Both the position numbers and the translations under genes were made by a program. A stretch of DNA of 64,000 nt, taken from NCBI GenBank assembly GCA_934271195.1, contig CAKQRB010000052.1, forward strand, positions 4,352-68,351, given 5' to 3'. The stretch is from an uncultured Alphaproteobacteria bacterium. Its GTDB lineage: Bacteria > Pseudomonadota > Alphaproteobacteria > RF32 > CAG-239. A model generated the notes under the pieces. That model saw nothing but the letters and a program-made list of their open reading frames with translations, searched no databases and was not told the DNA's origin. Each line of letters begins with the position of its first letter. The stretch's first letter is position 1. Below are positions 4,694 through 34,017 of the stretch, in pieces.

Positions 4694-5800
4694 ATGGCCT
4701 CAGATACGGAAATCATAGACTGCCTGCGCTTAATCAACTCCGAAAACGTCGGTCCGGTCACCTTTTACAAGCTCGTCAAAGAATACGGCAGTATTCCGGC
4801 GGCGCTTGATGCCTTGCCGTCTGCATTAAAAATACAACCCTGCCCGAAAGCGGATGCAGAAGCTGAATTTGAAAGGGTCAGAAACCTTGGCGCCACAATC
4901 ATTACTTATCGCGACAAAGAATATCCTGCGCTCTTAAAACAACTAAACGACAAACCGCCGCTTTTTTATGTCCTTGGCAACGCCGGATTACTGAACCTGC
5001 CGCTGAGCATATCAATTGTCGGTGCCAGAAACGCAACCGTCAGCGGCCGCAAAACCGCATCAAAAATCGCCCACGACCTGACCAACAACAAAATTTTGGT
5101 AATTTCCGGCATGGCGCGCGGCATCGATTCGGCCGCTCATAAAGGCGCTATGTATGCCTGCGAACAGCAAGGTCCGACAATTGCCGTTCTGGGAACCGGA
5201 GTCGATATTCCTTATCCGAAAGAAAATACTGCCCTTTATCATCAAATTGCCGAACAAGGCGCCGTTATATCAGAATTTCCGCTCGGTACGCTGCCGCAGC
5301 CTGCCAATTTTCCGCGCCGCAACCGCATTGTCGCTGGTTTGTCTTGCGGAACGCTGGTTGTTGAAGCCTCGTTAAACTCAGGTTCTTTAATCACGGCTCG
5401 ACTGGCTTTGGAACAAGGACGCGATATTTTTGCCGTCCCAGGCTCACCACAGGATTTTCGTTCGCTCGGCCCCAATAAATTAATCAAAGACGGCGCCATT
5501 CTGGTTGAATCCGCCGACGATATTTTAGAAACCTTATCCCAAACCCACAGTGTTCAGCTAACGGAATATATTGACAAGTTGCAAAAAAATGCCGATATTC
5601 CGGAAGAAGAAACCAAAGAAGAAGATCTTGTGGACAGCTCCTGCCTGACGGATTACATCAGTTATGACGGTGTCTATGTCGACGAACTGATTCGCGTTAC
5701 CGGCATGAGCGTTTCCGAACTTTCTCCTGCTCTTCTGGAACTGGAATTAAACGGCAAAATCGAAAGACAACCCGGCAACAAAGTTGCTTTAATAAAATAA
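4694..5800 (+). CDS. dprA: DNA processing protein DprA (Smf)
   Basis: 368 aa. Rossmann-like DprA core (ISIVGARNAT...ISGMARGIDSAAHKGA...GTGVDIPYPKEN). The start ATG abuts the plsY stop. Confidence 0.85.
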   Translation: MASDTEIIDCLRLINSENVGPVTFYKLVKEYGSIPAALDALPSALKIQPCPKADAEAEFERVRNLGATIITYRDKEYPALLKQLNDKPPLFYVLGNAGLLNLPLSISIVGARNATVSGRKTASKIAHDLTNNKILVISGMARGIDSAAHKGAMYACEQQGPTIAVLGTGVDIPYPKENTALYHQIAEQGAVISEFPLGTLPQPANFPRRNRIVAGLSCGTLVVEASLNSGSLITARLALEQGRDIFAVPGSPQDFRSLGPNKLIKDGAILVESADDILETLSQTHSVQLTEYIDKLQKNADIPEEETKEEDLVDSSCLTDYISYDGVYVDELIRVTGMSVSELSPALLELELNGKIERQPGNKVALIK

Positions 5801-5813
5801 ATATGGAAAAGAA

Positions 5814-8267
5814 ATGAAGTTAGTTATTGTAGAGTCTCCGGCCAAAGCCAAAACCATTAACAAATACCTCGGCAGCGACTATAAAGTCCTTGCCAGCTTC
5901 GGCCATATTCGCGACTTGCCGAGCAAAGACGGCTCCGTCAAACCGGACGAAGACTTTGCAATGAGCTGGGAACTCAGCCCCGGCGGTCAAAAGCGCCTCA
6001 AAGATATTATTGACGCAGTCAAAGAAGCCGACACGATTGTCCTCGCCTCCGACCCGGATAGAGAAGGAGAAGCCATTGCCTGGCATATTTTGGAAGAATT
6101 AAAAGCCAAAAAGAAAATCAAAGACAAAAAAATCGAGCGCGTTGTCTTTCATGAAATCACCAAACGTGCGGTAACCGAGGCCATTCAAAACCCGCGCACG
6201 ATTGATGACAATCTCGTTTCTGCCTACATGGCCCGCCGCGCTTTGGATTACCTTGTCGGTTTTACATTATCACCTGTTCTGTGGCGCAAGCTTCCGGGAT
6301 CAAAATCCGCCGGCCGCGTTCAGTCCGTCGCCCTGCGGTTGATTTGTGAACGCGAAACCGAAATTGAAAAATTCAAACCGGAAGAATACTGGACGGTCGA
6401 TGTTGACTTAATCACCAAAACTCAGGCGCTCATCAAGTCTCACCTGATAACGCTGGACGGTAAAAAGCTGGAAAAATTTGATATCAATACCGAAGAAAAA
6501 GCTCTTGCCGCCAAAGCCAAAATTGAAGCGCAAGAATTCAGTATTGCCAGTGTTGAACGCAAAAAAACCAACCGCTATCCGGCTCCGCCGTTCACAACCT
6601 CGACTTTGCAGCAGGAAGCCGCCCGCAAGCTGCGCTATTCTGCCAAAAAGACCATGCAGATTGCCCAAAAGCTTTATGAAGCGGGTTTAATCACTTATAT
6701 GCGTACCGATGCGGTCAATCTGTCACAGGAGGCCGTAACCGCCTGCCGCGACGCGATTCTAAAATATTTTGGCGAAGCCTACCTGCCGAAAACAGCTAAA
6801 GAATACAAGACAAAATCCAAAAACGCTCAAGAAGCACACGAGGCCATTCGTCCGTCCGATGTCATGAACACGCCGAAAAAAATGGAAACAAAACTGGATG
6901 CCGACGCCCACAAGCTCTACGAGCTGATCTGGAAGCGTACCGTCGCCTGCCAGATGAATCCGGCCGTTCTTGACAAAGTCACCATTGATTCCATTTCTGC
7001 AGACAAACAAATCATTTTGCGCGCCAACGGACAAGTCATCAATTTTGACGGCTTCTTAAAACTTTATCAGGAAAGCAAAGACGACAGTGATGAAGATGAT
7101 GAGAACAGGATTCTGCCAAACGTGGAAGAAGGCGAAAACGTTGACAAAGGCGAAATCACAACCGCCCAGCACTTTACTACGCCGCCGCCGCGCTTTACCG
7201 AAGCCAGTTTGGTTAAAAAGCTGGAAGAACTCGGCATCGGACGCCCGTCGACTTATGCTACGATTATTTCCGTTCTGCAGGAACGCAAATATGTTCGGGT
7301 AGAAAAATTGCGCTTTATTCCGGAAGACCGCGGTCGTATTGTAACCGTATTTCTGGAAAACTTTTTCAAAAAATATGTAGAATATGATTTCACTGCCCAG
7401 CTGGAAGAATATCTTGATGATATCTCCGCCGGCGAGATGGAATGGAAAAAGCTGCTTGGCGGCTTTTGGGCAAAATTCATCAAAACAGTTGAATCGGTAC
7501 AGCCGTTGCAAATTACCGAAGTCATTAACAAAATTGACGAGGCCTTGTCGTTTCACTTGTTCCCGCCCCGCGAAGACGGCTCTGACCCCAGAGCGTGTCC
7601 GGAATGCGGTACCGGCCGTTTAAGTATCAAACTAGGAAAATTTGGTGCCTTTATCGGTTGCTCCAACTATCCGGAGTGCAAATACACCAAGCCGCTGGTT
7701 GATACGAGTGATGAAGAAGCATCAGATTCTCCCAAACCCAAATCCGGCGAAGATAAAGTTCTGGGCGAATTAAACGGCATGAAGATTTATCTCAAAAAAG
7801 GCCCTTACGGTTTTTATTTGCAATTGGGTGAAGACGCAACGGCTACCACAGAAAAGCCTAAACGCTCGGCCTTGCCGAAAAACTTGAATCCGGAAGAAGT
7901 TACTTATGAACAGGCATCAACCTTACTGAGCCTGCCCAAACAGCTCGGCAACGGAATTGAAGTTAATATCGGAAAATTCGGACAATATATCAAACAGGGC
8001 GGCAAATCAAAGTCTCTGACCGGTAATGATAACATTTTCAACATTACCTTGGAACGCGCCGAAGAAATTTTGAAAAACGTTGCCGAACGTCCGGTCGGAA
8101 AAGTTATCGGCCGGCATCCGAAGGATAAAGCCGATATCACGCTGAATGTCGGCCGTTACGGACCTTACCTGAAATGGGGTAAAAATAATTATGCCCTGCC
8201 TAAAGCCCTCAAAGATAAGGAACCGACTTTGGAAGAAGCCCTTCAGGTCATTAATGCAAAAAAATAA
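5814..8267 (+). CDS. topA: DNA topoisomerase I
   Basis: 817 aa. Toprim N-terminus (MKLVIVESPAKAKTINKYLG...), topo IA core and a C-terminal zinc ribbon (CPECG...CSNYPEC). Confidence 0.95.
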   Translation: MKLVIVESPAKAKTINKYLGSDYKVLASFGHIRDLPSKDGSVKPDEDFAMSWELSPGGQKRLKDIIDAVKEADTIVLASDPDREGEAIAWHILEELKAKKKIKDKKIERVVFHEITKRAVTEAIQNPRTIDDNLVSAYMARRALDYLVGFTLSPVLWRKLPGSKSAGRVQSVALRLICERETEIEKFKPEEYWTVDVDLITKTQALIKSHLITLDGKKLEKFDINTEEKALAAKAKIEAQEFSIASVERKKTNRYPAPPFTTSTLQQEAARKLRYSAKKTMQIAQKLYEAGLITYMRTDAVNLSQEAVTACRDAILKYFGEAYLPKTAKEYKTKSKNAQEAHEAIRPSDVMNTPKKMETKLDADAHKLYELIWKRTVACQMNPAVLDKVTIDSISADKQIILRANGQVINFDGFLKLYQESKDDSDEDDENRILPNVEEGENVDKGEITTAQHFTTPPPRFTEASLVKKLEELGIGRPSTYATIISVLQERKYVRVEKLRFIPEDRGRIVTVFLENFFKKYVEYDFTAQLEEYLDDISAGEMEWKKLLGGFWAKFIKTVESVQPLQITEVINKIDEALSFHLFPPREDGSDPRACPECGTGRLSIKLGKFGAFIGCSNYPECKYTKPLVDTSDEEASDSPKPKSGEDKVLGELNGMKIYLKKGPYGFYLQLGEDATATTEKPKRSALPKNLNPEEVTYEQASTLLSLPKQLGNGIEVNIGKFGQYIKQGGKSKSLTGNDNIFNITLERAEEILKNVAERPVGKVIGRHPKDKADITLNVGRYGPYLKWGKNNYALPKALKDKEPTLEEALQVINAKK

Positions 8268-18639: not shown

Positions 18640-18985
18640 ACTCTTTTCTTTCCCATATTTTCCTCTTCATATTCTCCCTTATTTCTGTTCACCGACCTTA
18701 TTTTCCACCTCTCATTTTCCGCTTCACATTTTACTCCTCCAACTCCTTTGGCCTCTTCTTTTCTCTCTCACTTCAATACTTATCTTCTCATCTCTTATTT
18801 CAGCCCTCTGCTCATACTTCCAACCATTCTCCTTATCCCCACTTTCTTCTCTCACACCTCGCGGCTTTCCATTCCCCTTATCTTCTGTTTCTCTCTTTCC
18901 TTCCACCTTAGCCTCTTTTAGCCAAAATCCCCTCTGTTTTTCCCGCTCCTCTGCCCAAAATTTCAACATTATTCTTCATGAGTAT
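18640..18985 (+). repeat. Polypyrimidine (CT-rich) tract, copy 1 of a repeated promoter-bearing cassette
   Basis: About 345 bp with almost only C/T on the plus strand. The 3' roughly 100 bp is near-identical to 42110-42207 (…ctttagccaaaatcc[c/t]ctctg…ctgcccaaaatttc[a/c]acattattcttcatgagt[a/g]tttgaca). Confidence 0.8.
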
Positions 18986-19014
18986 TTGACATTATCGTTT
19001 CTTTATGATATACT
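18986..19014 (+). promoter_or_regulatory. Near-consensus sigma70 promoter of Cys-rich paralog 1
   Basis: TTGACA (18986-18991), 17-bp spacer ending in TGA (extended -10 TG), TATACT (19009-19014). Then about a 28-nt leader with SD GGGAGGAAG before the ATG at 19050. Confidence 0.75.
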
Positions 19015-19049
19015 GGTCTTAGGACTTGAACTTTTTAGGGAGGAAGCCG

Positions 19050-20417
19050 ATGAAGAATATTAACACTATGCTACACATGAAACTAAACTCTGCGGTGTCA
19101 GTTTTTGCTGTTGCCGCAGCTTTCTCGGTTTTTCTCCCAACCTCCACATTTGCAGGTGTCTGCTTCCTGCCCGACTGTGCTGATGATGTACCTCTTATTG
19201 AACCAGATGTTAAATATTGTGAAAGCAACGGCTTCACCTACTATGCTGACGGCAAGTGTCCGCAATATTATGCCAATGTCGGAAAATGTTCCCGTGACGA
19301 CCATTATCTTAAATGCGACGCCGCGAAGTGGTGTAAACAAAATGGATATAACACGACCTCATGCTCCATTCCTAAATATGTTGACACTCCTTGTCCGAGT
19401 GACGGTTCTCTTTACAAACAATGCAAGACTGACAATCCCCGCGCTTGTCAGGAGGCCGGTTATACCAAGACTTGTCCTTCCGGTCAGAAACTTAAAAAGA
19501 ACTCCAGCCGTTGCTCTTATGATAATTCTTACGGAACCTGTTGTAAACCGTCAGGTTGTCCCGCTCATACTTCATTAACCTCTTCGTCCTACGGAACTAA
19601 CGGTACTGATGGCTGCGAATATACCTGTTATTACACCTGCAACATGAACTGCCCGTCCGGTACTTCAACTTCCAACCCCGGAGGTTGTGGCGGGTCGACA
19701 CGTAACGGATGTAACACAAAAACTTGTTATTATCCTTATCAATCATGCTGCACACCAAAGTGTTCAGATGAGCATGGTTGCTCATGTGGAACAACTTCCG
19801 TTTCTGACGGATGCGGCGGAACTTGTACAAAATGTAAATCTTGTTGTAATCGCTACTCTTCAAACTGGTGTTCTGTTCACTCAACCTGTCATGGAGATTG
19901 CTGCTCTGATGGAACAATAAAACCTTGTGATACGCAATGCGGGGGTTCAGGTTGCTCTACTTGTAATAGCTCCTCTTCAAACTGGTGTTCCGTTCACTCG
20001 ACCTGTCATGGAGATTGCTGCTCTGACGGATCGATCAAACCTTGTGACACACGCTGCGGCGGATCAGGTTGCTCTACCGGCGGCGGTGGCGGCGGCGAAA
20101 CGGGTGGAAGTTCTAGCTGTTCTGGATACAGCTCTTGTTCAACTGAGTGTACTGGCGTAACCAACACCACACCTCACTGTCAAAATCGTTATAATGATGG
20201 CAGCGGTTACAATTATATCGCTCTGGTATGCAATCTGAATATTTCCAGAACCCGCGTTACCTGCAACGGACAAACCGAAACTGATGGCGGTATCGCTTAT
20301 GAACAGCTAGACCGCTGGAGCACAGGCAACCAAACAAACGACATAGCAGCTTGCGAGGCAAAACGCAAAAACACGACCTGCGTCTGCTCAAGTTACCGCT
20401 GGCCATACAACTGTTAA
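19050..20417 (+). CDS. Secreted hyper-cysteine-rich protein, paralog 1 (unknown function)
   Basis: Start is set at the ATG after SD GGGAGGAAG (the ORF track begins upstream at a TTG at 19026). Sec-type signal peptide (MKNINTMLHMKLNSAVSVFAVAAAFSVFLPTSTFA), no lipobox. The mature part is very Cys-rich with many CxC/CC/CxxC spacings and is Gly/Ser/Thr/Asn rich. It carries a 39-aa tandem duplication. Paralog at 42274-43422. Confidence 0.85.
   Translation: MKNINTMLHMKLNSAVSVFAVAAAFSVFLPTSTFAGVCFLPDCADDVPLIEPDVKYCESNGFTYYADGKCPQYYANVGKCSRDDHYLKCDAAKWCKQNGYNTTSCSIPKYVDTPCPSDGSLYKQCKTDNPRACQEAGYTKTCPSGQKLKKNSSRCSYDNSYGTCCKPSGCPAHTSLTSSSYGTNGTDGCEYTCYYTCNMNCPSGTSTSNPGGCGGSTRNGCNTKTCYYPYQSCCTPKCSDEHGCSCGTTSVSDGCGGTCTKCKSCCNRYSSNWCSVHSTCHGDCCSDGTIKPCDTQCGGSGCSTCNSSSSNWCSVHSTCHGDCCSDGSIKPCDTRCGGSGCSTGGGGGGETGGSSSCSGYSSCSTECTGVTNTTPHCQNRYNDGSGYNYIALVCNLNISRTRVTCNGQTETDGGIAYEQLDRWSTGNQTNDIAACEAKRKNTTCVCSSYRWPYNC
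19857..20077 (+). repeat. In-frame tandem duplication inside Cys-rich paralog 1
   Basis: Two 104-bp units (19857-19960 and 19974-20077) separated by 13 bp, giving a 117-bp (39-codon) period and roughly 90% identity. They encode SSNWCSVHSTCHGDCCSDG(T/S)IKPCDT(Q/R)CGGSGCST twice. Paralog 2 has a single copy. Confidence 0.85.
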
Positions 20418-20429: not shown

Positions 20430-20485
20430 GCAAAAAACTCTCTTTTTTCCGCCCTGTAAAGGACAGAAAGAAGAGAGTTTTTTAT
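20430..20485. terminator. Bidirectional rho-independent terminator between convergent genes (Cys-rich paralog 1 and ftsZ)
   Basis: aaaaa-ACTCTCTTTTTTCC…GAAAGAAGAGAGT-tttttt: a 13-bp stem with one mismatch, an A-run on one side and a T-run on the other. Confidence 0.6.
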
Positions 20486-22279: not shown

Positions 22280-23539
22280 TTAAAAATTTTGTTTTATCCA
22301 CGAGAAAATTTTGCCCAATCCGCCAACGCTGCGAACCGATTTATTAATAATTTTATTCGGACGTTTTTCCGTATAATTCAGGGCATACATCAACAAGCCG
22401 ACACAAGTTGAATAAGCCGGATTCGTAAAGACCTCTGGCTGATTGATGTCAGCCTTTGGCTTCCATACCCGCACTTCCTTGTCCAACACCATTGTCGCAA
22501 CTTCGCGAATACCCGGAAGCTGACTGCCGCCACCGGTCAAGACCACACGATGACTCGGCATATCTTTCAGCCCCTGTTCTTCCAGTTTCATATTGACAAG
22601 TTCAAAAATTTCTTCGATCCGCGGCGTAATAATACTAATCAAATCAGCCTTGGTAATCTGGCGTATGCTGCTGTCGTCTTCCTCTCCGACCGGATAAACG
22701 TTAATTGTTTCTTCTTTGTCTTTGCTGGTCAAAAAAGCACAGCCATGATAAGTCTTCAGACGTTCGGCATTGGCAATGGATGTCGTAAGCCCGTAAGCAA
22801 TATCATTTGTCACATTATTTCCACCTACCGGCAATGCCGCAAAATATACCGGATATCCGTGACGGAAGGTAGCAATGCTGGTTGTTCCGCCGCCAATATC
22901 AATAACGGTCGCTCCGATTTCTTTCTCGTCTTCCACCAGACAGGCCAGTCCGGAAGCATAAGAAGAAAAAGCCCTGCCGACAATTTCGAGATGTGCGTTC
23001 TCAATCACTGTTGAAAGATTACGATATGTAATTTCCGGCACCAACCCGAGCACAATGTCAACAGCCAGCTTTTCAGCAAAAATATTTCGCGGATCCTTAA
23101 TCTCCTCACCGCCGTCCAGACGATAGTTGGTCGGCAGGCAATGCACCAGATCACACCCGTCGACACTGATTTTGTTCAGCCCTTTTTCCAAAACCTTGTT
23201 CAAATCAGCTTCGTTAATCGGACGGTTTTTATTAAGAGAAATCGCCGCATTTTTGATAGAACTGTGTACCTTGTCACCGGAAATATTGACAATAATTTTG
23301 CTGATACGTTCGTTGGCGCGCTGTTCTGCAGCCTCAACAGCATTGCACACTGCCAGTGTCGCCTTGTTAATATCTGTTACCACGCCGTTTTTAATACCGC
23401 TGGAAGCATTGTAGCCATAGCCGGCAATTTTAATTTGCCCTTCACGGCTGACTTTCGCAATCACGCAACAAACTTTTGAAGATCCCACGTCCAAAGCTGC
23501 AAATGTTGACGACTTGTTCAAGTTCTCCCCCTTCTCCAA
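22280..23539 (-). CDS. ftsA: Cell division protein FtsA
   Basis: 419 aa actin-like ATPase (ALDVGSSKVCCVIAK…). ftsQ-ftsA-ftsZ order. Confidence 0.9.
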   Translation of the reverse strand: MEKGENLNKSSTFAALDVGSSKVCCVIAKVSREGQIKIAGYGYNASSGIKNGVVTDINKATLAVCNAVEAAEQRANERISKIIVNISGDKVHSSIKNAAISLNKNRPINEADLNKVLEKGLNKISVDGCDLVHCLPTNYRLDGGEEIKDPRNIFAEKLAVDIVLGLVPEITYRNLSTVIENAHLEIVGRAFSSYASGLACLVEDEKEIGATVIDIGGGTTSIATFRHGYPVYFAALPVGGNNVTNDIAYGLTTSIANAERLKTYHGCAFLTSKDKEETINVYPVGEEDDSSIRQITKADLISIITPRIEEIFELVNMKLEEQGLKDMPSHRVVLTGGGSQLPGIREVATMVLDKEVRVWKPKADINQPEVFTNPAYSTCVGLLMYALNYTEKRPNKIINKSVRSVGGLGKIFSWIKQNF

Positions 23540-23574
23540 ACTTTCCGGTTTGTTTTACGGCAACGGCCTCCTCA

Positions 23575-24444
23575 TCAGGTTGCCCTTTCCTTGCCGTTAT
23601 TAAGCTTAAGCGGTTCTTTAATAGCCGTTTTCTTAAGCTTGATAATCACCTTATCCCTTAACCTTAAATCAATTATGGTTAATTTACGTTTAAGAATCCC
23701 TTTTGTCACATTTAATTTTAACAATTTTTTCCATGCTTTTTCAATTTTCTCTTCCGGCAATTTTACGGTAATACCGTTCCGAATGTCGTCCAAAACCAGA
23801 TTCCAACGCCGCTGCGAAATATAATTCGCCACTTTCACCCGTTTAAAAACAGCATTGTCTTTTTGAATAACCTCAAGCAATGCATTAATATTTTCCGGCG
23901 CTCCTGCCCCGACAATCAGCAAAATCGGCTGATCCGGTTTAAAATCAGCATGAATAACCTTGCCATCTTCATCTATCGGATAAAACTTTTCCGAAATCTG
24001 CCAAATTGACTTCACCTGCTTTTCAACAATACCGATTTGCACCACATTCGGCATAAAAGATTTTTTAACCACTGCCGATTTCACCCACGGCAGTGCCTCA
24101 ACCCTTTCTTTAATCTCCGCTACATTAACCTGAAAAATATTATCATCACGGCTCAGCCTGACTGCTTGCCGCAATTCCTCGGCGCTTGTTTTTTCATGCC
24201 CGAACACCAAAACCTCGTCCACGCCAAAACCGTGCTTTCCGCTAAAAACATAAAACTCCTGCGCCCATTCGCTAAACTGTTTGCTGACCAGACTTTGTTT
24301 AACCGTCGCAGTTAAAGAAGCCAAAACCAGAATCACCCCGAGCACAATCAGACTGCCAACCAGACGATAAAGCCACTCTGCCGGAAGCCTGACAATATCT
24401 TCCAACGGATCGGGCGCTATTTGGGTCTTGCTCTTTCCAAACAT
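23575..24444 (-). CDS. ftsQ: Cell division protein FtsQ
   Basis: Single N-terminal TM followed by POTRA-like domains. Start placed at the Met whose ATG overlaps the murB stop (TAATG); the ORF track extends to 24480. Confidence 0.7.
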   Translation of the reverse strand: MFGKSKTQIAPDPLEDIVRLPAEWLYRLVGSLIVLGVILVLASLTATVKQSLVSKQFSEWAQEFYVFSGKHGFGVDEVLVFGHEKTSAEELRQAVRLSRDDNIFQVNVAEIKERVEALPWVKSAVVKKSFMPNVVQIGIVEKQVKSIWQISEKFYPIDEDGKVIHADFKPDQPILLIVGAGAPENINALLEVIQKDNAVFKRVKVANYISQRRWNLVLDDIRNGITVKLPEEKIEKAWKKLLKLNVTKGILKRKLTIIDLRLRDKVIIKLKKTAIKEPLKLNNGKERAT

Positions 24445-25379
24445 TACTTCTTCATAATTCCCATGCGTTTGACTTCCCACTCTAAAACGATGGAAGTCTT
24501 TTCCTTAACCCTGTTAATAATCTCCTCTCCCAGCGTCTCAATATCGTTAGCTGTTGCCTTACCGGTATTAATCAGAAAATTACAGTGTTTTTCCGAAACC
24601 TTGGCACCGTTAACGCTCAACCCGCAACAGCCGGATTTCTTAATCAGTTCCCAGGCCTTCAAACCCTCGGGATTTTTAAAGGTTGAGCCGGCCGTTTTTT
24701 CATTATACGGCTGATTGGCAATTCTGTACTGCCGCTGCTCTTCCAAAATACGGGCAATATTTTCCTTCTTGTCCTTTGCTGCCCGAAAAGTAATGGACGT
24801 AATAATCCAGTCATCGGGAAAAAAGCTGCTTCGATAAGAAAGCATCAAATCATCGACCGTCACCGTTTCTTTTTCGCCACGACCGTTTACAATCGTCGCA
24901 CGGGCAATCACGTCTTTTACACACCGCCCGAAACAACCGGCATTGGTCTTGACCGAACCACCAATAACGCCGGGAATGGAGCACAAAAACTCCAGCCCGC
25001 CCAGCTCATTCTCCAGCATAATCTTTTTCAAATCGGCATTACGTACGCCGGCAAAACAGGTAATTTCATTATCCTTTATTTCAATCTGCTTAAAATATTT
25101 GCTGTCCAGACGAATAACTACTCCGGTAATTCCACCGTCGCGCACCAACAGATTAGAGCCGCCGCCGACCACGCATACCGGCAGATTATACGGCATCATC
25201 TTAAGAAAAAAGCCCAAATCGCCTTCATCTTCCGGATGATACATTACGTCAGCCGGTCCGCCGACGCCAAACCATGTATATTTTGACATCGGCACGTCGA
25301 TATCATAACGTCCCCTGACTTCAGGAAGAAAATCTACCAGTTTTTTTCTCTTCGGCCACAGCCGTTTTAACCTCAACAT
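24444..25379 (-). CDS. murB: UDP-N-acetylenolpyruvoylglucosamine reductase MurB
   Basis: 311 aa. FAD-binding PCMH domain (WFGVGGPADVMY…) and MurB C-terminal domain. Confidence 0.9.
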   Translation of the reverse strand: MLRLKRLWPKRKKLVDFLPEVRGRYDIDVPMSKYTWFGVGGPADVMYHPEDEGDLGFFLKMMPYNLPVCVVGGGSNLLVRDGGITGVVIRLDSKYFKQIEIKDNEITCFAGVRNADLKKIMLENELGGLEFLCSIPGVIGGSVKTNAGCFGRCVKDVIARATIVNGRGEKETVTVDDLMLSYRSSFFPDDWIITSITFRAAKDKKENIARILEEQRQYRIANQPYNEKTAGSTFKNPEGLKAWELIKKSGCCGLSVNGAKVSEKHCNFLINTGKATANDIETLGEEIINRVKEKTSIVLEWEVKRMGIMKK

Positions 25380-25393
25380 TTTTCCTCCTGATT

Positions 25394-26509
25394 TTATCTT
25401 GCTGAAATTTCACGCTCCACCGCGTCGGCAAAACGCTGCGCAGCATCATTAATTGCGGTCTTTTTGGCATTGTCAGACATTTTTTTCATCTTTTTCGGAT
25501 TCGCAATCGCCTCTTTCAAAATGCCGGACAATACTTCCGGCGTAAAATCTTTCTGCCGAATAACCTCAGCTCCTTTGGCTTCTCCCAAAGTCTGGGCATT
25601 GTACGACTGATGATCATCGGCGGCAATCGGCAGCGGAACCAAAACTGACGGCAAGCCGGCAATTGCAATCTCAGAAACCGAAGACGCCCCCGCCCGCGAC
25701 ACAATCAAATCCGTTGAAGCATAAAGCTCGTCCATATTGTCAAAAAAAGCAGAAACCACAACCTCGGCTCCACAACCCCGATAAGCGTTTTCAATCAGCG
25801 TTATGTCATCTTTCCGGCATTGCTGAAAAATCTTCATCTTTTTTTGCTCAAACTTATCCAAAGCAGCTACCGCAGTCGGCACAACTTCACTGAATACTTT
25901 TGCCCCTTGGCTTCCGCCCAAAATCAGCAATTGAAAAACATCATCTGCCGTACGTTCTTTATATTTTCCTTCTCCGGTTTTGACAATCGCTCCCCGCACC
26001 GGCATACCGGTCAGCAGCGTTCTGACATTTGTCGGCGTATATTTTACATTTTTAAAACTCTGCGCAATCAATGAAGCATATTTGCTCAAAAACCTGTTTG
26101 TCCGACTCATGACTGCATTCTGCTCATGCAAAATCAAATCCGTTCCGAGCAGAATAGCCGCCATTGATGCCGGAAAAGAGGCATAACCGCCAAATCCGAC
26201 CACACATTTCGGCCGCTTTTTCAAAATCAGGAAACCGGCTTGCAAAATACCAATGCATGTTTTGAACAAACTCTTAAGCTTAAACCATTTTGACTTTCCG
26301 ACCATCGCTCCGGCCCAGACCGCATAATTTGGAATCTCACCCAGATGCCCTTTATAATTATCTTTACCGCGGCTGTCGGTAATCAGTGCCAGCCGGTATC
26401 CCCGCTTTAACAGTTCCTCTGCCAGAGCCTCGGCCGGATAAACATGACCGCCCGTTCCGCCGGCTGTTAAAAAGATTAAAGGTTTTGCTTTCTTTTTAGT
26501 ACGTTTCAT
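25394..26509 (-). CDS. murG: UDP-GlcNAc:undecaprenyl-PP-MurNAc-pentapeptide GlcNAc transferase MurG
   Basis: Glycosyltransferase family 28 (LIFLTAGGTGGHVYPAEALAEEL). Start set at the internal Met (MKRTKKKAKPLIF) overlapping the ftsW end; the ORF track extends to 26605. Confidence 0.85.
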   Translation of the reverse strand: MKRTKKKAKPLIFLTAGGTGGHVYPAEALAEELLKRGYRLALITDSRGKDNYKGHLGEIPNYAVWAGAMVGKSKWFKLKSLFKTCIGILQAGFLILKKRPKCVVGFGGYASFPASMAAILLGTDLILHEQNAVMSRTNRFLSKYASLIAQSFKNVKYTPTNVRTLLTGMPVRGAIVKTGEGKYKERTADDVFQLLILGGSQGAKVFSEVVPTAVAALDKFEQKKMKIFQQCRKDDITLIENAYRGCGAEVVVSAFFDNMDELYASTDLIVSRAGASSVSEIAIAGLPSVLVPLPIAADDHQSYNAQTLGEAKGAEVIRQKDFTPEVLSGILKEAIANPKKMKKMSDNAKKTAINDAAQRFADAVEREISAR

Positions 26510-27632
26510 CTTTATCCTCCGCATGAACATTTTTTCGGGTAATTGCCAGCAACATCCCCATTCCCAGCGCTGTCGCCAAAACCGAAGACCCGCCGTAAGA
26601 AACAAAAGGCATGGTCATTCCTTTGGTCGGCATCAGGTGCAGCGTGGACGCCATATTAATAATGCCCTGAACACCGAATGACGCACACAGGCCGGAAGCC
26701 GACAAAATAATAAACAAATTGTTGTCTTTAAGTGATATGATCATTGAACGTATAACTACTATGGCAAAGACTGCAACAATAAACAAGCACAAAATCAATC
26801 CGTATTCTTCTGCCGCTACCGCAAAAATAAAATCGGTATGCGCATCGGGAATATTCATCTTAACTACGCCTTCGCCTGGGCCTTTGCCAAACAAGCTGCC
26901 GTTCTGGAAAGCCTCCAGCGACTTGCGCACTTGATAACTGAGTTCGTTGCCGGAAGCCAAAAATTGGTTCACGCGGCTATGCACATGGTCAAATGTAAAA
27001 TAAGCCGTCACCAGCATAGCCAGGAATCCCACTCCCAGCGCCGCCACGAATTTTATGGATAAACCGGCCAGAAAGAACTGAAAGACCCAAATACAAGAAA
27101 CCACACATGACATCCCGAAATCAGGCTGCAACAACAATAAACCGACCGTTAAAACAAACAGAAAAAGAGAAATCAGATTTCCCGGAAAATTTGCCGACTT
27201 ATTCTGCCCATCAAACAACCACGCCGCAACGACAATAAAAGTCGGCTTGACAAATTCGGAAGGCTGAAGTGTAAAACCCAGAATTCTGATCCAACGCGTG
27301 GCGCCCTTGGCTTCAAAACCCCATATCAGCGTAAAAACCATCAGAACAATCGTTACGGTATATCCCAAAATCGCCACCCTGCGGATAGCCTTCAAACTTT
27401 GCATGGATAAAAACAGCATCAGGGACAACGCCAACGGCATAAAAAACAGCTGCCGTTTTACAAAATGATAACTGTCCGCCCCGATCCGGTTAGCCACCGA
27501 CGGGCTGGCCGAAAAAGTCAGCAGCAATCCGACCATAACCAAAGACAAAATCAACGACAGCAGAATCTTGTCAACGGTCCACCACCAGTTGCTCAAAACG
27601 CTTCGGGAATTTCTGGCCAGATTAATAATCAT
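26496..27632 (-). CDS. ftsW: Cell division SEDS protein FtsW
   Basis: 378 aa polytopic SEDS protein. Lies between mraY and murG. Confidence 0.85.
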   Translation of the reverse strand: MIINLARNSRSVLSNWWWTVDKILLSLILSLVMVGLLLTFSASPSVANRIGADSYHFVKRQLFFMPLALSLMLFLSMQSLKAIRRVAILGYTVTIVLMVFTLIWGFEAKGATRWIRILGFTLQPSEFVKPTFIVVAAWLFDGQNKSANFPGNLISLFLFVLTVGLLLLQPDFGMSCVVSCIWVFQFFLAGLSIKFVAALGVGFLAMLVTAYFTFDHVHSRVNQFLASGNELSYQVRKSLEAFQNGSLFGKGPGEGVVKMNIPDAHTDFIFAVAAEEYGLILCLFIVAVFAIVVIRSMIISLKDNNLFIILSASGLCASFGVQGIINMASTLHLMPTKGMTMPFVSYGGSSVLATALGMGMLLAITRKNVHAEDKDETY

Positions 27633-27636
27633 TTTC

Positions 27637-28722
27637 TTATCTCACGGTTAAAGACATCAGGGCTGTCACGGCCAAAATCAGGGCCATAATCCAAAAACGA
27701 TTAACAACGCGGGTTTCCGGCCAGCCCGATTGCTCAAAGTGATGATGTATCGGCGCCATTTTGAAAAATCTTCTGCCGCCGGTCTTCTTAAAATAGGCTA
27801 CCTGAATCATAACGGATAAAGCCTCAATCACAAAAATCCCGCCCGCAATCGCCAGTATAATTTCCTGCTTGAGCATAACGGCAATCGTACCGAGCAAACC
27901 GCCCAAAGCCAGAGAGCCAGTATCACCCATAAAAACCTTTGCCGGCGCGCAGTTAAACCACAAAAAGCCCAGACACCCACCGATAACGGCAGCACAAACG
28001 ACGGCAACTTCGCCGACATTCGGCAGCTTGGCGATTGCAAAAACGTCAACCAGCGGACTGCCGCCGATATAAGCAAAAACCATAAACACAAACAAAGCCG
28101 CAATCATTAATCCGGAAGCCAGCCCGTCCAATCCGTCGGAAAGATTCACGGCATTAGACGACCCGACAATCACAATCATGGCAAAAGGAATATAAAACAG
28201 CCACAAATTAACCGCCAGATTAAAATAAGGAATTGTCAGGCTAAAGCGGTTTTGCTCAGGCGTCAGATAAGATACAATCAAGACCGAAACCAAAGCGGTT
28301 GAAAACTGCAGAAGCAACTTCATTTTTGCCGTCATGGCGTTTGCAGTCTGTTTTTTGACCTTGACATAGTCATCGACAAACCCCACAAAGCCATAAACCA
28401 GCAAAACCAAAATGCAAACCCAAACCAGAGGATCATTCCAATGCGCCCAGAGGATTGTTGACAGAATGCCGCTGCCCAAAATCATCAGGCCGCCCATTGT
28501 CGGCGTCCCCTTTTTGGTCAGCAAATGGCTCTGTGGGCCGTCTTCGCGGATTGGCTGGCCTTTTCCCTGATGAAGGCGCAAATAATTAATGATTCGCTCC
28601 CCGCAAACCAACACCAGAATAAAAGCGGTAAAAAAAGCGCCGCCGGTACGCCAACAAAGCGTAGAGCTGAAAACAGACAATTCATTCGCTGCAGACTGAA
28701 ACAAACTGTTAAACATTCCCAA
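27637..28722 (-). CDS. mraY: Phospho-N-acetylmuramoyl-pentapeptide transferase MraY
   Basis: 361 aa polytopic glycosyltransferase family 4 protein with MraY motifs (…MGDTGSLALGG…). Confidence 0.9.
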   Translation of the reverse strand: MGMFNSLFQSAANELSVFSSTLCWRTGGAFFTAFILVLVCGERIINYLRLHQGKGQPIREDGPQSHLLTKKGTPTMGGLMILGSGILSTILWAHWNDPLVWVCILVLLVYGFVGFVDDYVKVKKQTANAMTAKMKLLLQFSTALVSVLIVSYLTPEQNRFSLTIPYFNLAVNLWLFYIPFAMIVIVGSSNAVNLSDGLDGLASGLMIAALFVFMVFAYIGGSPLVDVFAIAKLPNVGEVAVVCAAVIGGCLGFLWFNCAPAKVFMGDTGSLALGGLLGTIAVMLKQEIILAIAGGIFVIEALSVMIQVAYFKKTGGRRFFKMAPIHHHFEQSGWPETRVVNRFWIMALILAVTALMSLTVR

Positions 28723-28789
28723 TAGTCCCCCGGATCATAAAATTTTATTTTTAATCCTACCCGCAATTTCTAAAATAAACCTTAAAATA

Positions 28790-29046
28790 TCTGATGAAAT
28801 AAAAAAACTTTTATCCTCTTTTTTCCTTTTATTTCTCTCCGTCCTCTTCCCCTTTCCCTATCTTGCCTCTTTTTTATTCTTCATTATTTTTCTCTTTCTT
28901 CTTCTCTTATCTCTCCGCTTTCGCCATTCTGCTTCTCTCATCATTCCAATTAACCAAAGTCCCCACGGCTTTCTTCACCTGTTATCCCAAACCCTGCTCG
29001 ACTTTTTATTGCATGTCAAATTTTGCACTTCTTTATGCTGTAGTAT
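28790..29046 (+). repeat. Polypyrimidine tract plus degenerate promoter, copy 3 of the cassette (orphan/decayed)
   Basis: CT-rich plus strand (about 28790-29000) ending in …ccaaagtcccc…cccaaaccctgc…ttgcatgtcaaattttgcacttctttatgctgTAGTAT. This aligns with the …ccaaaatcccc…gcccaaaatttc…tttgacattatcgtttctttatgaTATACT of copies 1 and 2, with indels in the spacer. No intact downstream gene. Confidence 0.6.
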
Positions 29047-29329
29047 CCGAATTGTCACCTGCAAGCCGGATGGCGCCGGTTTTATGCGGTGTCTTAAACT
29101 CCGTATTGCTCTGGCGGAATGTATGACAAAGTATGTGCTTTGAAAGGTTTGTCATTGCCGGACTTCAAACCGGCAATTCATAAAAAAAAGAAGCAGAGTG
29201 CCGACTGTGAAACGGTTTCTCGGATCAAGTCCAAGAATGACAAGAAAAGAATTTTATTAACCGTTCTGATCTGGGCACTCTGTTGTTCAGATAAAGAAAA
29301 GAGCAACGCGCAAGCTCTTTGCAAACTTT

Positions 29330-30103
29330 TTACTTAATGTAGCGGCGAGCTTCAACCAAGTCCTCTTCCGTATCAATATCCGCAGGAGCCTCTTGAACCA
29401 GCTTCATGTTATTAATAACTTTTGCCCGAATAGTCATGCCGTTTTCAAGTGCGCGCAACTGTTCCAAAGATTCGCGCGCTTCCAAAACGCCGACAGGCAA
29501 ATCTACCATCTTGGCCAGTGAAGAAGCTTTATAAACATAAATGCCGATGTGATGATACAAATCCTGATTCTTACACTTTTCCGGATTTCGGGTAAAAGGA
29601 GCCACCGCACGGGTAAAATATAAACAACGCCCTTCCGTCTCACCGTCGCGCAATCCCATGACAATCTTAACATTTGCCGGTTTTGCAGCTTCCTCGACAG
29701 ACTCAAATACCATTCCACAAGTTGCAATATCGCACCCCGTCCGCTCAATCATCTCAATCAACTGATTATTGATGTCCGGATCCACATTAATGGCATCGCC
29801 TTGAAAATTAACCACAATATCATACTTGCTGCCATCCGGATCAATCGTCTTTAATGCAGCGGCAATACGATCAGTACCGGAAGGCAGACTCGGATCTGTC
29901 AAAATAGCCTTAGCGCCAAACTTTGTACATTCATCTAAAATCACCTGATCGCCGGCCGCCACATAAACATCACCTTTAATTGCCTTGCAAACATTTTCAT
30001 AAACACGATTAATCAGTGTCTTGCCGTTAATATCGCATAATGGTTTGTTCGGCAGGCGGGTCGAGGCCATTCTAACCGGAATCATCGTCACTATTCTGCT
30101 CAT
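29330..30103 (-). CDS. kdsB: 3-deoxy-manno-octulosonate cytidylyltransferase (CMP-KDO synthetase)
   Basis: 257 aa (MIPVRMASTRLPNKPL…). Confidence 0.9.
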   Translation of the reverse strand: MSRIVTMIPVRMASTRLPNKPLCDINGKTLINRVYENVCKAIKGDVYVAAGDQVILDECTKFGAKAILTDPSLPSGTDRIAAALKTIDPDGSKYDIVVNFQGDAINVDPDINNQLIEMIERTGCDIATCGMVFESVEEAAKPANVKIVMGLRDGETEGRCLYFTRAVAPFTRNPEKCKNQDLYHHIGIYVYKASSLAKMVDLPVGVLEARESLEQLRALENGMTIRAKVINNMKLVQEAPADIDTEEDLVEARRYIK

Positions 30104-30181
30104 CTAAAAAATCTCCGTAAAAGGTTATTGCTAATACGGCATTTATATATTATAACAAGCAAAAAATAAAGGATTAGATAC

Positions 30182-31267
30182 ATGAAAGTGGATATTTTTG
30201 ATTTTGACCTCGACCGCAGCCTGATTGCCAAAGAGCCTGTCTCTCCGCGAGATACCTCTCGTCTGCTTGATTTATCGCAGAAAGATCGGATTTCCGACCG
30301 TCATTTTTATGACTTGCCACAGCTTTTAAATGAAGGAGACGTGCTGGTTTTTAATGACACTAAAGTCATTCCGGCCCGTTTATACGGCCGCCATGGCGAA
30401 GCTTTGGTTGAAGTCACGCTGTACCGTCCGGTTGACGGCATCTGCTGGTGGAGCTTTATCAAAAATTCCAAACGCTTAAAACCCGGTAGCACGGTCAGCT
30501 TTTACACTTCCGAAATCTCTGCCGAAAAGTCTGACTTTACCGCCGAAGTCATTGAAAAACAAGACGAAGACGGAACACTTTTAAAATTTAACTGTGACCC
30601 GTCGCAACTCGGGCATTTGCTGGAAAAATACGGTTCCATGCCGCTGCCGCCTTATATCAAACGTGAAAAACCGGCCGCTGACGGTATCTGGGACAAATAC
30701 AACGATAAAGAAAACTATCAGACGGTCTATGCCAGACACGAAGGCGCCGTTGCTGCCCCGACAGCCGGCCTGCATTTTACCGACCGAGTTTTGCAGGCAA
30801 TTGAAGAAAAAGGCGTGAAAAAAGTATTTCTGACCTTGCATGTCGGCGCCGGAACTTTTCTTCCGGTCAAAACGGACGATACCCAAGACCACAAAATGCA
30901 CGCCGAATACGGCATCATTACCCAAGAAGCCGCTGATACAATCAATGCCGCCAAAGCTGCCGGCAAAAACATCATTGCTGTCGGCACTACTTCGCTCCGC
31001 CTGTTGGAAAGCGCCGCGGACGAACACGGCATCTTGCATCCTTTTGCCGATGACACCAGCATTTTCATCACGCCGGGATACAAGTTCAAAATGATTGATT
31101 ATCTGGTCACAAATTTTCACCTGCCGAAATCTACTTTGTTTATGCTGGTCTGTGCCGTAGCCGGCCTCGACCGAATGAAGCAGGGATATGCTCATGCCAT
31201 TGCAGAAAAATACCGTTTTTATTCTTACGGCGACAGCTCTATTTTAAAATGTGTAAATAAAATTTAA
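30182..31267 (+). CDS. queA: S-adenosylmethionine:tRNA ribosyltransferase-isomerase QueA
   Basis: 361 aa (MKVDIFDFDLDRSLIAKEPVSPRD…). Confidence 0.9.
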   Translation: MKVDIFDFDLDRSLIAKEPVSPRDTSRLLDLSQKDRISDRHFYDLPQLLNEGDVLVFNDTKVIPARLYGRHGEALVEVTLYRPVDGICWWSFIKNSKRLKPGSTVSFYTSEISAEKSDFTAEVIEKQDEDGTLLKFNCDPSQLGHLLEKYGSMPLPPYIKREKPAADGIWDKYNDKENYQTVYARHEGAVAAPTAGLHFTDRVLQAIEEKGVKKVFLTLHVGAGTFLPVKTDDTQDHKMHAEYGIITQEAADTINAAKAAGKNIIAVGTTSLRLLESAADEHGILHPFADDTSIFITPGYKFKMIDYLVTNFHLPKSTLFMLVCAVAGLDRMKQGYAHAIAEKYRFYSYGDSSILKCVNKI

Positions 31268-31312
31268 ACTTTCCGCCACTATACTTTTTTCCTGAAGACC
31301 AAGGAGAAAAAC

Positions 31313-32485
31313 GTGCCAAAATTTGCTTTGATTTTAGATAAAATAATTCCGCTGATACGCAATATGCTGATTCCGGCCTTGTTGTTTGGCGGCGGACTGA
31401 TTTATTTTTTTGCCGCAGAAGAAATTCCACACGCCTCACAACTGACCCTGCACCATCTTTTTTATGCCGCGTCCTGCCTCAGCTTTCTGATTTTGCTTTA
31501 TTTTCGCAAAGGCATTGCCGTTTTCTTCATCCTGACCGGCGCTGTCAGTTATGTCTTAATCAACTATATCAAGATCACCAATCCGGCGGCTTTTCGCGAA
31601 AGCGTTGATTTCGTCAACTTGAGTGTTTTCATCCCGCTTAATTTGATAATTTTTTATTTCTGGCCGCAAAAACAGCTCTTAAAAAAGAAAAACATCTATT
31701 TGTTGCTGCTTATTTTTGCACAGTTTTCTATTGGCGAACACCTGCACAAATATAATATTGCCCTGAACTATACCCCTTTTTCCGCCAATGACAATTTATG
31801 CTTTTTAAGCTACCTGATATTTTTCGGCGCGTTGTTTTCTTTTTTCTGGAAAGCCGTCAACACCGGTAAAATTTATGATTATGCCCTGTTTTTTGCCGCC
31901 GCCGACATTTTCTTCGGCTTTTACTATGCCGACAGCACAACGGCTCTGACCTTGTTCTACAGCCTCTCCGGCATCACAATTTTAATCGCCACTATTTTAT
32001 ACATTTACACAGACACCTACAAAGACGAACTGACCGGATTTTCAAGCCGCAGCGCCTTTATGCTGCAATACCGGAACTTTCCGCTCAAATACAGCCTTGC
32101 CGTTGCCAAGATTGACAACTACATCTCGCTCAAAAACGCCTTTCGCCGCCGTGGTCTGAACAAGCTGATGAAGATGATAGCCCTGCGCATTAACGCCTGC
32201 GAAACCGAAGCCGTAATTTATCGTTACGGTGAAGACGAACTGGTTATTATTTTTAAAAACGAAGACAAAAACAATGCTTATAACAAGATGGAACAAATCC
32301 GCCGTTCCATCGCTTCGGCCTCATTCATGATGTCAAACTTCAAAAAGCCGGTAAAACTGACGCTGACCACCAGTGTAACCGAAAAAAAACGCAGTGATGC
32401 CACTGCGTTGGAAACCCTTGCCAGAACCTATAAGGCCTTGCAGGAAACAATCAAATTCAGCCAGAACGTGACCTCTAAGCTTTAA
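31313..32485 (+). CDS. Membrane protein with a C-terminal degenerate GGDEF (diguanylate-cyclase-like) domain
   Basis: About 8 TM helices in the N-terminus. The C-terminus matches the GGDEF fold landmarks (DELTGFSSRSAF… / LAVAKIDNYISLKNAF… / RYGEDELVIIF in place of RYGGDEF), so it is probably catalytically inactive. Confidence 0.6.
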   Translation: MPKFALILDKIIPLIRNMLIPALLFGGGLIYFFAAEEIPHASQLTLHHLFYAASCLSFLILLYFRKGIAVFFILTGAVSYVLINYIKITNPAAFRESVDFVNLSVFIPLNLIIFYFWPQKQLLKKKNIYLLLLIFAQFSIGEHLHKYNIALNYTPFSANDNLCFLSYLIFFGALFSFFWKAVNTGKIYDYALFFAAADIFFGFYYADSTTALTLFYSLSGITILIATILYIYTDTYKDELTGFSSRSAFMLQYRNFPLKYSLAVAKIDNYISLKNAFRRRGLNKLMKMIALRINACETEAVIYRYGEDELVIIFKNEDKNNAYNKMEQIRRSIASASFMMSNFKKPVKLTLTTSVTEKKRSDATALETLARTYKALQETIKFSQNVTSKL

Positions 32486-33275
32486 GCTTCTGCCGCCAGA
32501 CCAGCCACAATACCATAGTGCCAAGCATAACCAGCGGCAGAGATAAAATCTGCCCCATCGTCAGATGAAAAAAGAAAAACCCCATATGTGCATCCGGCTC
32601 GCGAAATTGCTCCATTAAAATCCGAAAACAACCATACAACAAAACAAACATTGCCGACACCGTCCCCTTATGCTCGCGAACCGGCTTATACCGCCACAGC
32701 AGATTCAGCACAATAAACATCACAATGCCCTCAAAAAACGCCTCATACAACTGCGAAGGATGCCGCGGCAGCCCGCCTCCGTTCGGAAAACGCACCGCCC
32801 ACGGAACATCTGTCACCCGTCCCCACAATTCGTCATTAACAAAATTTGCTAACCTGCCTAAAAAGATTCCGATTGGAGCATATAAAACAACCAAATCCGT
32901 CACACCGAGAAAAGGATACTTCACCTTACGGGCAAACATATAAGCCGCTGCCGCCACACCGGCCGCCCCTCCGTGAAAAGACATTCCGCCTTTCCATATT
33001 TCTAATATCTGCAAAGGATTATGCCAAAAGGAAGATGTTCCGTAAAACAAAACATACCCCAGCCGGCCGCCGATAATAATCCCCAGTGTCATATAAAAAA
33101 CCAAATCTTCAATATCGGTTTTTGTCAGCGGCAGATTATTTTTCTTAATATTACAGTTAACCAGAAACCAGGCAATAAGTATGCCTGCCAGATAAGCCAT
33201 TGAGTACCAGCGGATTACCAAAGGTCCGACAGAAAAAATAATTGGCGAGATTGCGGGATATTCCAAACCAGTCAT
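32475..33275 (-). CDS. lgt: Prolipoprotein diacylglyceryl transferase Lgt
   Basis: Multi-TM protein. N-terminus MTGLEYPAISPIIFSVGPLVIRWYSMAYLAG is typical of Lgt. Start placed at that Met; the ORF track extends to 33338. Confidence 0.85.
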   Translation of the reverse strand: MTGLEYPAISPIIFSVGPLVIRWYSMAYLAGILIAWFLVNCNIKKNNLPLTKTDIEDLVFYMTLGIIIGGRLGYVLFYGTSSFWHNPLQILEIWKGGMSFHGGAAGVAAAAYMFARKVKYPFLGVTDLVVLYAPIGIFLGRLANFVNDELWGRVTDVPWAVRFPNGGGLPRHPSQLYEAFFEGIVMFIVLNLLWRYKPVREHKGTVSAMFVLLYGCFRILMEQFREPDAHMGFFFFHLTMGQILSLPLVMLGTMVLWLVWRQKLKA

Positions 33276-33503
33276 AAACAAATCCTCTTCAAAAAATAAA
33301 TTTGTTAATACTATATTAAAATAAAATAAAATATCCACACTAAAAAAAATTAAAAATTTTATATAGGTTCAGAAGATTGATTTTCAAAGAAAACATGTCT
33401 TAAAAAATTTTTTCCGACTCGATGAAAGTGGAAAACTCCGCCATCGGGGTTGTAAGAAACGACTCGCAAAGGCAATATGGATTCATAAAAAAATTTCGGA
33501 GTA

Positions 33504-34010
33504 ATGACAACAATGCAATTGGCGAAGAATCTGCCTTTATCTTACAATCCCATTGATGTGGTCGAAAATATCTTCTCCGCTCAGTCCTTTGAGCTCGACC
33601 GCCGCAACCTGAATGAAGTAGTCATTGAGGTTCAGGGCAAATGGAACAACATGCTTTTATTTTTTGCCTGGGAAGCTAACATGCGCTGCCTTCACTTATC
33701 CTGCCTGATGGATATTGAAAGCGCCATCGAAGACCGCAGCAAAATTTTTGAACTTCTCGCTCTGGCAAACGAAGAACTCTGGGTCGGCCACTTTTCATAC
33801 TGGGCCGAACAAAATATGCCGGTATTCAAACACTCTATTATTCTTGACGAAACTGAGGAAAGTTTTGAAGGCAAAATACAACAGATTATTGAAATCGCCG
33901 TCAAAGAGTGCGAGCGCCTGTATCCGGTTTTCAAAGTCGTGCTGACCAAAGGCATGGATCCCAAACGCGCATTGTATCCGATGTTAATGGAAACTATGGG
34001 CGAAGCCTGA
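33504..34010 (+). CDS. YbjN-family (T3SS-chaperone-like fold) protein
   Basis: 168 aa soluble protein. Motif resemblance to E. coli YbjN (…CLHLSCLMDIESAIEDRSKIF…). Assigned from memory of the family. Confidence 0.45.
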   Translation: MTTMQLAKNLPLSYNPIDVVENIFSAQSFELDRRNLNEVVIEVQGKWNNMLLFFAWEANMRCLHLSCLMDIESAIEDRSKIFELLALANEELWVGHFSYWAEQNMPVFKHSIILDETEESFEGKIQQIIEIAVKECERLYPVFKVVLTKGMDPKRALYPMLMETMGEA

Positions 34011-34017
34011 AAGTTAA

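Follow-up and report, generated by a model that had tools for sequence, protein, structure and literature searches.

A multigene family of Cys-rich, predicted exported proteins with a conserved stalk and alternative C-terminal heads in uncultured gut Alphaproteobacteria

The Vlp proteins of Mycoplasma hyorhinis and the Vsp proteins of M. bovis are encoded by multigene systems whose dispersed or clustered members recombine with one another and combine a highly conserved promoter, 5' untranslated region and signal peptide with a divergent external part. The eukaryotic VSPs of Giardia, with ~12% Cys and abundant CXXC motifs, have a variable N-terminus and a conserved C-terminal transmembrane helix with a CRGKA tail. 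Chlamydial OmcA and OmcB form intermolecular disulfide networks and are encoded by one or two conserved genes per genome. The Legionella pneumophila adhesin Lcl is a type II-secreted, surface-exposed protein of stalk-and-head ('lollipop') shape, which binds glycosaminoglycans via its head, the Lcl_C domain (PMC11162425). Here we analyzed a stretch of 64,000 nucleotides from an uncultured Alphaproteobacteria bacterium (contig CAKQRB010000052.1, hereafter the window), which carries two genes for Cys-rich proteins, gene A (19050-20417, + strand, 455 aa) and gene B (42274-43422, + strand, 382 aa). We found no description of the family to which they belong (hereafter the A/B family) in the literature.

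The reading that we favour, with moderate confidence, is that the members of this family use a constant disulfide-rich stalk to display small binding heads outside the cytoplasm, with the paralogs making up a repertoire of heads; the front part would be homogenised by gene conversion while copies are gained and lost. Like Lcl, the proteins are predicted to be Sec-exported and start with a short N-terminal region, from which a long, rigid and repetitive stalk leads to a small head at the C-terminus; moreover, distant relatives of A and B end in Lcl_C. Unlike Lcl, which is a single gene with a collagen triple helix as its stalk, the family has a stalk of disulfide-stapled Cys-rich repeats and comprises a dozen paralogs, and A and B are without Lcl_C. 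With Vlp and Vsp the family shares its multigene nature and a conserved 5' expression region at each copy, followed by a divergent part. In contrast to these systems, no lipobox, no promoter homopolymer or simple repeat and no invertible DNA was found at A or B, and what varies is a folded Cys-rich domain instead of tandem repeats. The likeness to the Giardia VSPs lies in the gut habitat, the ~12% Cys and a large paralog family with a constant and a variable part; however, the constant part is N-terminal here, there is no transmembrane helix, and no VSP Pfam model was matched. Similar to OmcA and OmcB, the proteins are Cys-rich, predicted to be Sec-exported and encoded by a Gram-negative bacterium, whereas they lack a Pfam match, have a Cys parity that suggests intramolecular pairing and occur as many paralogs with different heads.

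Architecture of the proteins encoded by genes A and B

An original prediction, made from the letters of the window, had placed two paralogous genes for secreted Cys-rich proteins at these positions. Both open reading frames (ORFs) were found on the + strand, and their Cys contents (12.5% in A and 11.0% in B) are the two highest among window ORFs of at least 80 aa. Each gene has a near-consensus promoter with TTGACA, a 17-nt spacer and, as an extended -10 element, TG-TATACT (18986-19014 for A and 42208-42236 for B, both + strand); that of A matches 11 of 12 consensus positions. The Shine-Dalgarno sequence GGGAGG, read from the sequence at 19038-19043 (+ strand) in A, lies 6 nt before the ATG at 19050, and B likewise has GGGAGG 6 nt before its ATG. 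The DNA of the two genes is 88-95% identical from ~135 nt upstream of the ATG into the gene, and the proteins share 72% identity over 304 aligned columns (E=8e-136). The proposed common promoter, Shine-Dalgarno sequence, signal peptide and N-terminal part were thus confirmed. A conserved front with a divergent C-terminus was also recovered; the ~170 aa originally assigned to the front, however, proved too short, as the shared part reaches aa ~230 and is followed by a 33-aa indel and a common 39-aa Cys module. A and B are unrelated solely over their last ~100 aa. We conclude that these genes are genuine and do not stem from faulty annotation or a frame error.

The product of gene A consists of a signal peptide (aa 1-35), the peptide GVCFLPDC (aa 36-43), an acidic linker (aa 44-52), the stalk (aa ~53-262), two 39-aa Cys modules, a Gly linker and head A (aa 355-455). 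In B, a signal peptide, GVCFLPDC motif and stalk as in A are followed by one 39-aa module (42988-43104), a Gly/Ser linker and head B (aa ~291-382, encoded by 43144-43419). The predicted mature proteins contain 58 Cys (A) and 42 Cys (B), amounting to 12-14% of residues, and are rich in S, G, T, N and Y, while I, L, V, F, M and W together make up just 8-9%.

The N-termini of A and B show n, h and c regions, with K2 and K11 followed by AVSVFAVAAAFSVFL. Residues 15-29 form the sole strongly hydrophobic stretch (Kyte-Doolittle mean over 15 residues, 2.4), and a small-x-small site precedes G36 (PTSTFA↓G in A and PTSAYC↓G in B). In ~120 close homologs and in the distant relatives, small residues always occupy positions -3 and -1 before residue 36 (G or A), for example in AFA↓G, ASA↓G, AYS↓G, AQA↓A and ALA↓A, which fits signal peptidase I. 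With a positively charged n-region, a lone hydrophobic stretch and this site, both proteins are predicted substrates of signal peptidase I and, as had been proposed, of Sec. No transmembrane helix was found in A or B.

Cleavage at this site would expose GVCFLPDC (19155-19178, + strand, in A) as the mature N-terminus. No element of the family is better conserved than the corresponding motif [GA]-[VI]-C-F-L-P-D-C: F39, L40, P41 and D42 do not vary among 99 sequences, and a CFLPDC-type motif is kept in distant relatives despite their different signal peptides. Within 627 kb comprising the window and related loci, the motif followed a signal peptide in family members only. FLPD as a general sorting tag of the lineage found no support, with no occurrence outside the family in the same 627 kb. 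The motif does not fit a lipobox because V or I precedes the first Cys in essentially all members; in some relatives, this Cys is itself replaced by T, H or Y.

The stalk, a conserved Cys-rich N-domain (19206-19835, + strand, in A), includes three ~38-aa repeats of 4 Cys each (aa 53-167). Comparison of these repeats (R1, R2 and R3) with hhalign gave P=1e-4 to 7e-4, and the local alignment of R1 with R2 reached 88% probability. The conserved region contains 41 invariant positions, many of them Cys. AlphaFold returned pLDDT values >90 for the conserved part (aa ~50-270) and for head A, the latter being confidently modelled as a compact domain; neither model had a significant fold match in the PDB. 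Behind the stalk of A, two tandem 117-nt modules (19839-20072, + strand) each encode 39 aa of the form CCNxxSSNWCSVHSTCHGDCCSDGxIKPCDTxCGGSGCS, a unit that is present in 57 family members, twice in A and once in B. Head A, the C-terminal domain, comprises 101 aa (20112-20414, + strand). The intervening Gly linker of A is encoded by an in-frame (CGG)6.7 run at 20078-20097, and a related strain has the linker TGDGDGGTGG; slippage in this run could alter the length of the linker and nothing else.

Members of the family follow the same plan, with 0-3 copies of the 39-aa module or of a related CGGT-type unit after the conserved region, then a Gly/Ser linker and one of many terminal domains of 60-150 aa. 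Most of these heads are Cys-rich and some are not. A given head type can be found on more than one stalk variant and in more than one genome. Head A has ~10 homologs at 37-52% identity, and head B four at 48-98%. These were identified by local BLAST, as a database search with head A alone gave 0 matches although a family protein (P0001) has an identical head, which we regard as a miss of the tool.

The number of Cys residues is even in 167 of 188 distinct mature family proteins (binomial p=2e-29). Pairing of all Cys within each molecule would give an even number per mature protein. The parity therefore points to complete disulfide pairing rather than to free thiols, metal sites or obligatory intermolecular cross-links, and provides strong but indirect support, from sequence, for complete oxidative folding of the family, in line with the disulfide folding initially proposed. 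Bearing on the question of metallothionein-like or free-thiol proteins, this parity stands together with a lack of any Pfam match.

Distribution, evolution and upstream regions of the family

Searches of Pfam and NCBIfam with A and B returned nothing useful; the lone match, to coronavirus nsp1 (E=0.07), was treated as noise. A family profile had no match in the PDB. The original prediction that the proteins belong to no known family was therefore borne out. Among 5.8 billion proteins, 307 matches were obtained, and every named one is a 'hypothetical protein' from metagenome-assembled genomes (MAGs) of uncultured Alphaproteobacteria. Searching the profile against 1.84 billion cluster representatives gave just 186 matches at E <= 0.001. 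In a set of one genome per species (185,579 species), 48 loci were located in eight assemblies, which derive from mouse gut, human gut, water deer rectum, chicken ('Candidatus Scatocola') and other MAGs. Four MAGs contain 8-16 loci per genome. The scan relied on peptide patterns derived from A, so that the numbers given are minimum values, and many loci are situated at the ends of contigs, where repeated genes are expected to be. No match was detected in phage and plasmid collections with tblastn, and A and B have the same GC content (0.46-0.47) as the neighbouring housekeeping genes. Collectively, the family is bacterial, chromosomal, narrowly distributed and multi-copy. Horizontal acquisition, raised in the original prediction, found no support in the GC content or in the phage and plasmid searches. 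Nor did we find significant sequence or fold similarity to eukaryotic-type modules (EGF, TNFR or defensin), and the suggested host mimicry or eukaryotic origin was not upheld. The 'CysRRep' repeat of fungi and prokaryotes (bioRxiv 10.64898/2026.06.07.730663) is unrelated, as its Cys spacing differs.

Four distant relatives of 750-1843 aa (P0147, P0150, P0156 and P0159) contain Lcl_C (DUF1566, PF07603) above the Pfam threshold at their C-termini. At the N-terminus they share the signal-peptide site, the CFLPDC motif and the stalk with the family. Among 99 close members, Lcl_C gave one weak match (E=0.009), and A and B gave none. Lcl_C is the sole functional lead for the A/B family, and it is a lead by analogy because A and B contain no such domain.

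To compare N-domains, we used 29 complete copies from five genomes. For 21 of the 29 copies the nearest neighbour lies in the same genome, often at 95-99% identity, and near-identical pairs have unrelated heads; the conserved front and variable end thus hold family-wide. Between A and B, dS varies along the alignment (Fisher p=2e-4): it is 0.10 over codons 54-160, 0.47 over codons 161-230 and 0.62 in the 39-aa module, with corresponding dN/dS values of 0.75, 0.45 and 0.02. As dS is so much lower in the 5' part than further on, the near-identity of this part in A and B is at least partly due to recent homogenisation and not to constraint alone. The 39-aa module is under strong purifying selection. 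On a contig from another sample (L053), an orthologous gene adjoining ftsZ is 99.4% identical to the window from 19961 onward, while over the first 960 nt its identity is 93.6% to B and only 89.5% to A, and it has one fewer 39-aa module. This mosaic reflects either strain-level gene conversion between paralogs or an assembly chimera.

Diversifying selection on the C-terminal parts, another element of the original prediction, was not supported: head A is 100% and head B 98% identical in related strains, and dN/dS in the 39-aa module is the 0.02 given above. The family seems to be a stable repertoire of paralogs rather than a set of fast-changing alleles.

Turnover of whole copies was seen on comparison of the window with another genome. 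At 28810-29316 (+ strand) lies a remnant of a third family locus, with a C/T-rich tract, a decayed promoter module and leader-like sequence but no coding sequence; its TTAACCAAAGT and CCCAAAC motifs are decayed and its promoter is degenerate. Another MAG (BRZ_BN bin26; locus L010) is collinear with the window over 23416-34746, with 81-82% nucleotide identity on both sides, and has an intact family gene exactly at this site. The segment is best read as the leftover of a lost family copy.

A ~100-bp module upstream of the coding sequence is common to ~20 family genes of other genomes, with the consensus TTAGCCAAAATCCCCTCTGCTTTTCC ... CTG[CT]CCAAAAT ... CTTTTCAT ... TTGAC-17-[TC]ATAGT. Directly upstream of the promoter of A lies a polypyrimidine (C/T-rich) tract (18640-18985, + strand; 5% G, 80% C+T), the last ~70 nt of which contain the motifs TTAGCCAAAATC and CTGCCCAAAAT, which are also kept upstream of ~20 family genes in other genomes. 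The equivalent tract of B with its conserved motifs (41915-42207, + strand; 7% G) is 88% identical to the A copy over 106 nt. Tracts of 100-350 nt precede A, B and 7 more copies out of 29 (about a third); in these other copies (L013, L019, L022, L023, L028, L029 and L032) they lie directly upstream of the promoter module. Tracts comparable to those of A and B (5-7% G) occurred in 1.6% of random windows. The polypyrimidine tract is not a tandem repeat and encodes no conserved protein on the other strand. We do not regard an 81-aa minus-strand ORF within it (18724-18969) as a gene, since the matching frame at B is broken. Possible roles of the tract are those of a platform for a regulator, of H-DNA or of a promoter of recombination.

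Many paralogs have an additional conserved leader of ~150-200 nt between promoter and Shine-Dalgarno sequence, of the form ATTAACCATTCCGGGCAC...GTTCAGATAAAGAAAAGAGCAAC...TTGACA (L013 at 5700-6000, L022, L028, L032, L044-L047 and L052, as well as 29233-29316 of the window). This leader may contain a second promoter or a regulatory RNA; Rfam gave no match in the window or in the long L013 leader. An invertible promoter was also considered for A and rejected, as the 19-nt inverted repeat that flanks its C/T tract is absent at B and leaves the promoter outside. In a search for a diversity-generating retroelement, the repeats involving A and B were paralog and module repeats only, and no reverse transcriptase is present among the annotated neighbours of family genes.

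Readings of the stalk-and-head architecture

In the favoured reading, the family is lineage-restricted and its proteins are exported through Sec, fully disulfide-bonded and composed of five successive parts. The near-invariant mature peptide [GA]-[VI]-C-F-L-P-D-C, for which an anchoring or sorting role is conceivable, and a short acidic flexible linker lead into a rigid Cys-rich stalk of ~210 aa made of small disulfide-stapled repeats. This is extended by 0-3 copies of the 39-aa Cys module and a Gly/Ser linker and ends in one of the alternative small C-terminal heads. The stalk would carry the head as a unit for ligand binding, probably at the cell surface or further out and thus past the periplasm, and the dense disulfides would confer protease resistance. 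With 8-16 or more heads per genome, the repertoire could bind host-derived or microbial ligands in the gut.

Several observations weigh against this reading. We detected neither an autotransporter nor a lipobox, beta-signal or known sorting motif, and secretion-system genes were not examined. Neither A nor B has a recognised binding domain, and the analogy with Lcl comes from distant relatives only. In the promoters, which lie within a conserved 5' region, no homopolymer, simple-repeat or inversion switch and no convincing flanking inverted repeats were found, and there is no sign of an allele-level arms race, the heads being 98-100% conserved among related strains. Furthermore, the comparison sequences come mostly from metagenome assembly, which can join repeated genes into chimeras; for the mosaic gene next to ftsZ a chimera is conceivable because its contig begins 31 nt upstream of the gene.

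Part of the same evidence fits a variable protective coat comparable to that of the Giardia VSPs, in which a protease-resistant disulfide layer would shield the cell and the paralogs would serve antigenic variety or evasion of host IgA rather than adhesion. A Cys content of 12-14% in a gut organism, a multigene family with a constant and a variable part, and probable full disulfide pairing all speak for such a coat, and the two readings overlap. However, every copy examined has its own consensus promoter and no device for one-at-a-time expression was found; a membrane anchor is lacking, and the heads are conserved between strains. We therefore regard a coat as unlikely. A location inside the envelope, with the proteins acting as cross-linked structural components of the OmcA/OmcB kind or as redox or metal buffers in the periplasm, would agree with the very high Cys content and with a Sec signal peptide as the only export signal found, none for the outer membrane having been detected. 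We consider it quite unlikely, as even Cys parity argues for intramolecular disulfides and not for free thiols, metal sites or intermolecular cross-links, and Pfam at E <= 1 returned only the weak coronavirus nsp1 match and no chlamydial outer-membrane protein or metallothionein model. In addition, a housekeeping role in the envelope would leave a dozen unrelated heads per genome and the turnover of genes between species unexplained, and some relatives carry adhesin-type Lcl_C heads.

The layout of a constant N-terminal and a variable C-terminal part is also the hallmark of polymorphic toxins or bacteriocins, in which competitors are attacked with exchangeable toxic C-terminal domains on an invariant delivery part, and the many paralogs per genome would agree with such a system. 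Here such a role appears highly improbable because no conserved small gene of the immunity type follows the family genes, whose downstream neighbours are instead ftsZ (convergent), FtsH, hydrolase and PPDK genes, and because no toxin domain occurs in 99 members. The heads are small and Cys-rich, and there are no linked secretion or delivery genes.

Returning to the display of binding heads on a stalk, a more far-reaching version of it can be put forward tentatively, although we doubt that all of its parts hold together. It would be an unrecognised surface display system that combines an all-disulfide stalk, a new N-terminal signal, a library of novel heads, a homogenised 5' part and an active C/T tract. 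In it, [GA]-[VI]-C-F-L-P-D-C would be a new sorting or anchoring signal that tethers the stalk to the envelope or routes it out of the cell; the stalk-coding part and the dedicated ~100-bp promoter module would be kept uniform by gene conversion; and the polypyrimidine tract would act as a regulatory or recombination-promoting element.

The host group of gut Alphaproteobacteria occurs in humans, mice, ruminants and poultry; it is uncultured, and its functions are almost unknown. Among its most distinctive lineage-specific features is the A/B family, of which a genome has a dozen copies, all under strong promoters of their own. Should the proteins indeed be surface binding modules, they would be obvious candidates for attachment to mucus, host cells or other microbes and candidates for targets of host antibodies. 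They provide two confidently modelled domains without a PDB match, and a compact disulfide-rich scaffold with exchangeable heads may be of interest for protein engineering. The family is also a clear bacterial case of concerted evolution limited to one half of a gene.

Genomic neighbourhood

Family genes are solitary and monocistronic and lie amid housekeeping genes, with no partner genes. Gene A is located between a U32 peptidase gene and convergent ftsZ, and gene B between an ABC-F ATPase gene and a convergent gene for pyruvate phosphate dikinase (PPDK). Other copies adjoin trxA/ftsH or sspB/hydrolase genes, and no family locus retrieved from other genomes adjoins ftsZ or an ABC-F gene. Between gene A and ftsZ, a 24-nt inverted repeat (88% complementary) with flanking A and T runs forms a hairpin at 20432-20483, which is probably a bidirectional terminator.

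Downstream of gene B, a 911-aa ORF at 44565-47300 (+ strand) is an antisense shadow of the PPDK gene (44592-47273, - strand). Between the PPDK and pyruvate kinase genes are two 81-nt direct repeats (47475-47555 and 47651-47731), 99% identical and 176 nt apart. An 86-nt direct repeat of 72% identity (35514-35599 and 35983-36068) lies upstream of the YceG (mltG-like) and fabF genes; on its minus strand a DSLDRIEL-type motif, recognised by eye, suggests two tandem acyl-carrier-protein-like genes, and the 152-aa ORF at 35421-35879 had no Pfam match. Finally, a GGDEF-domain protein is encoded at 31313-32485 in an otherwise housekeeping neighbourhood of dcw, mre and queA genes.

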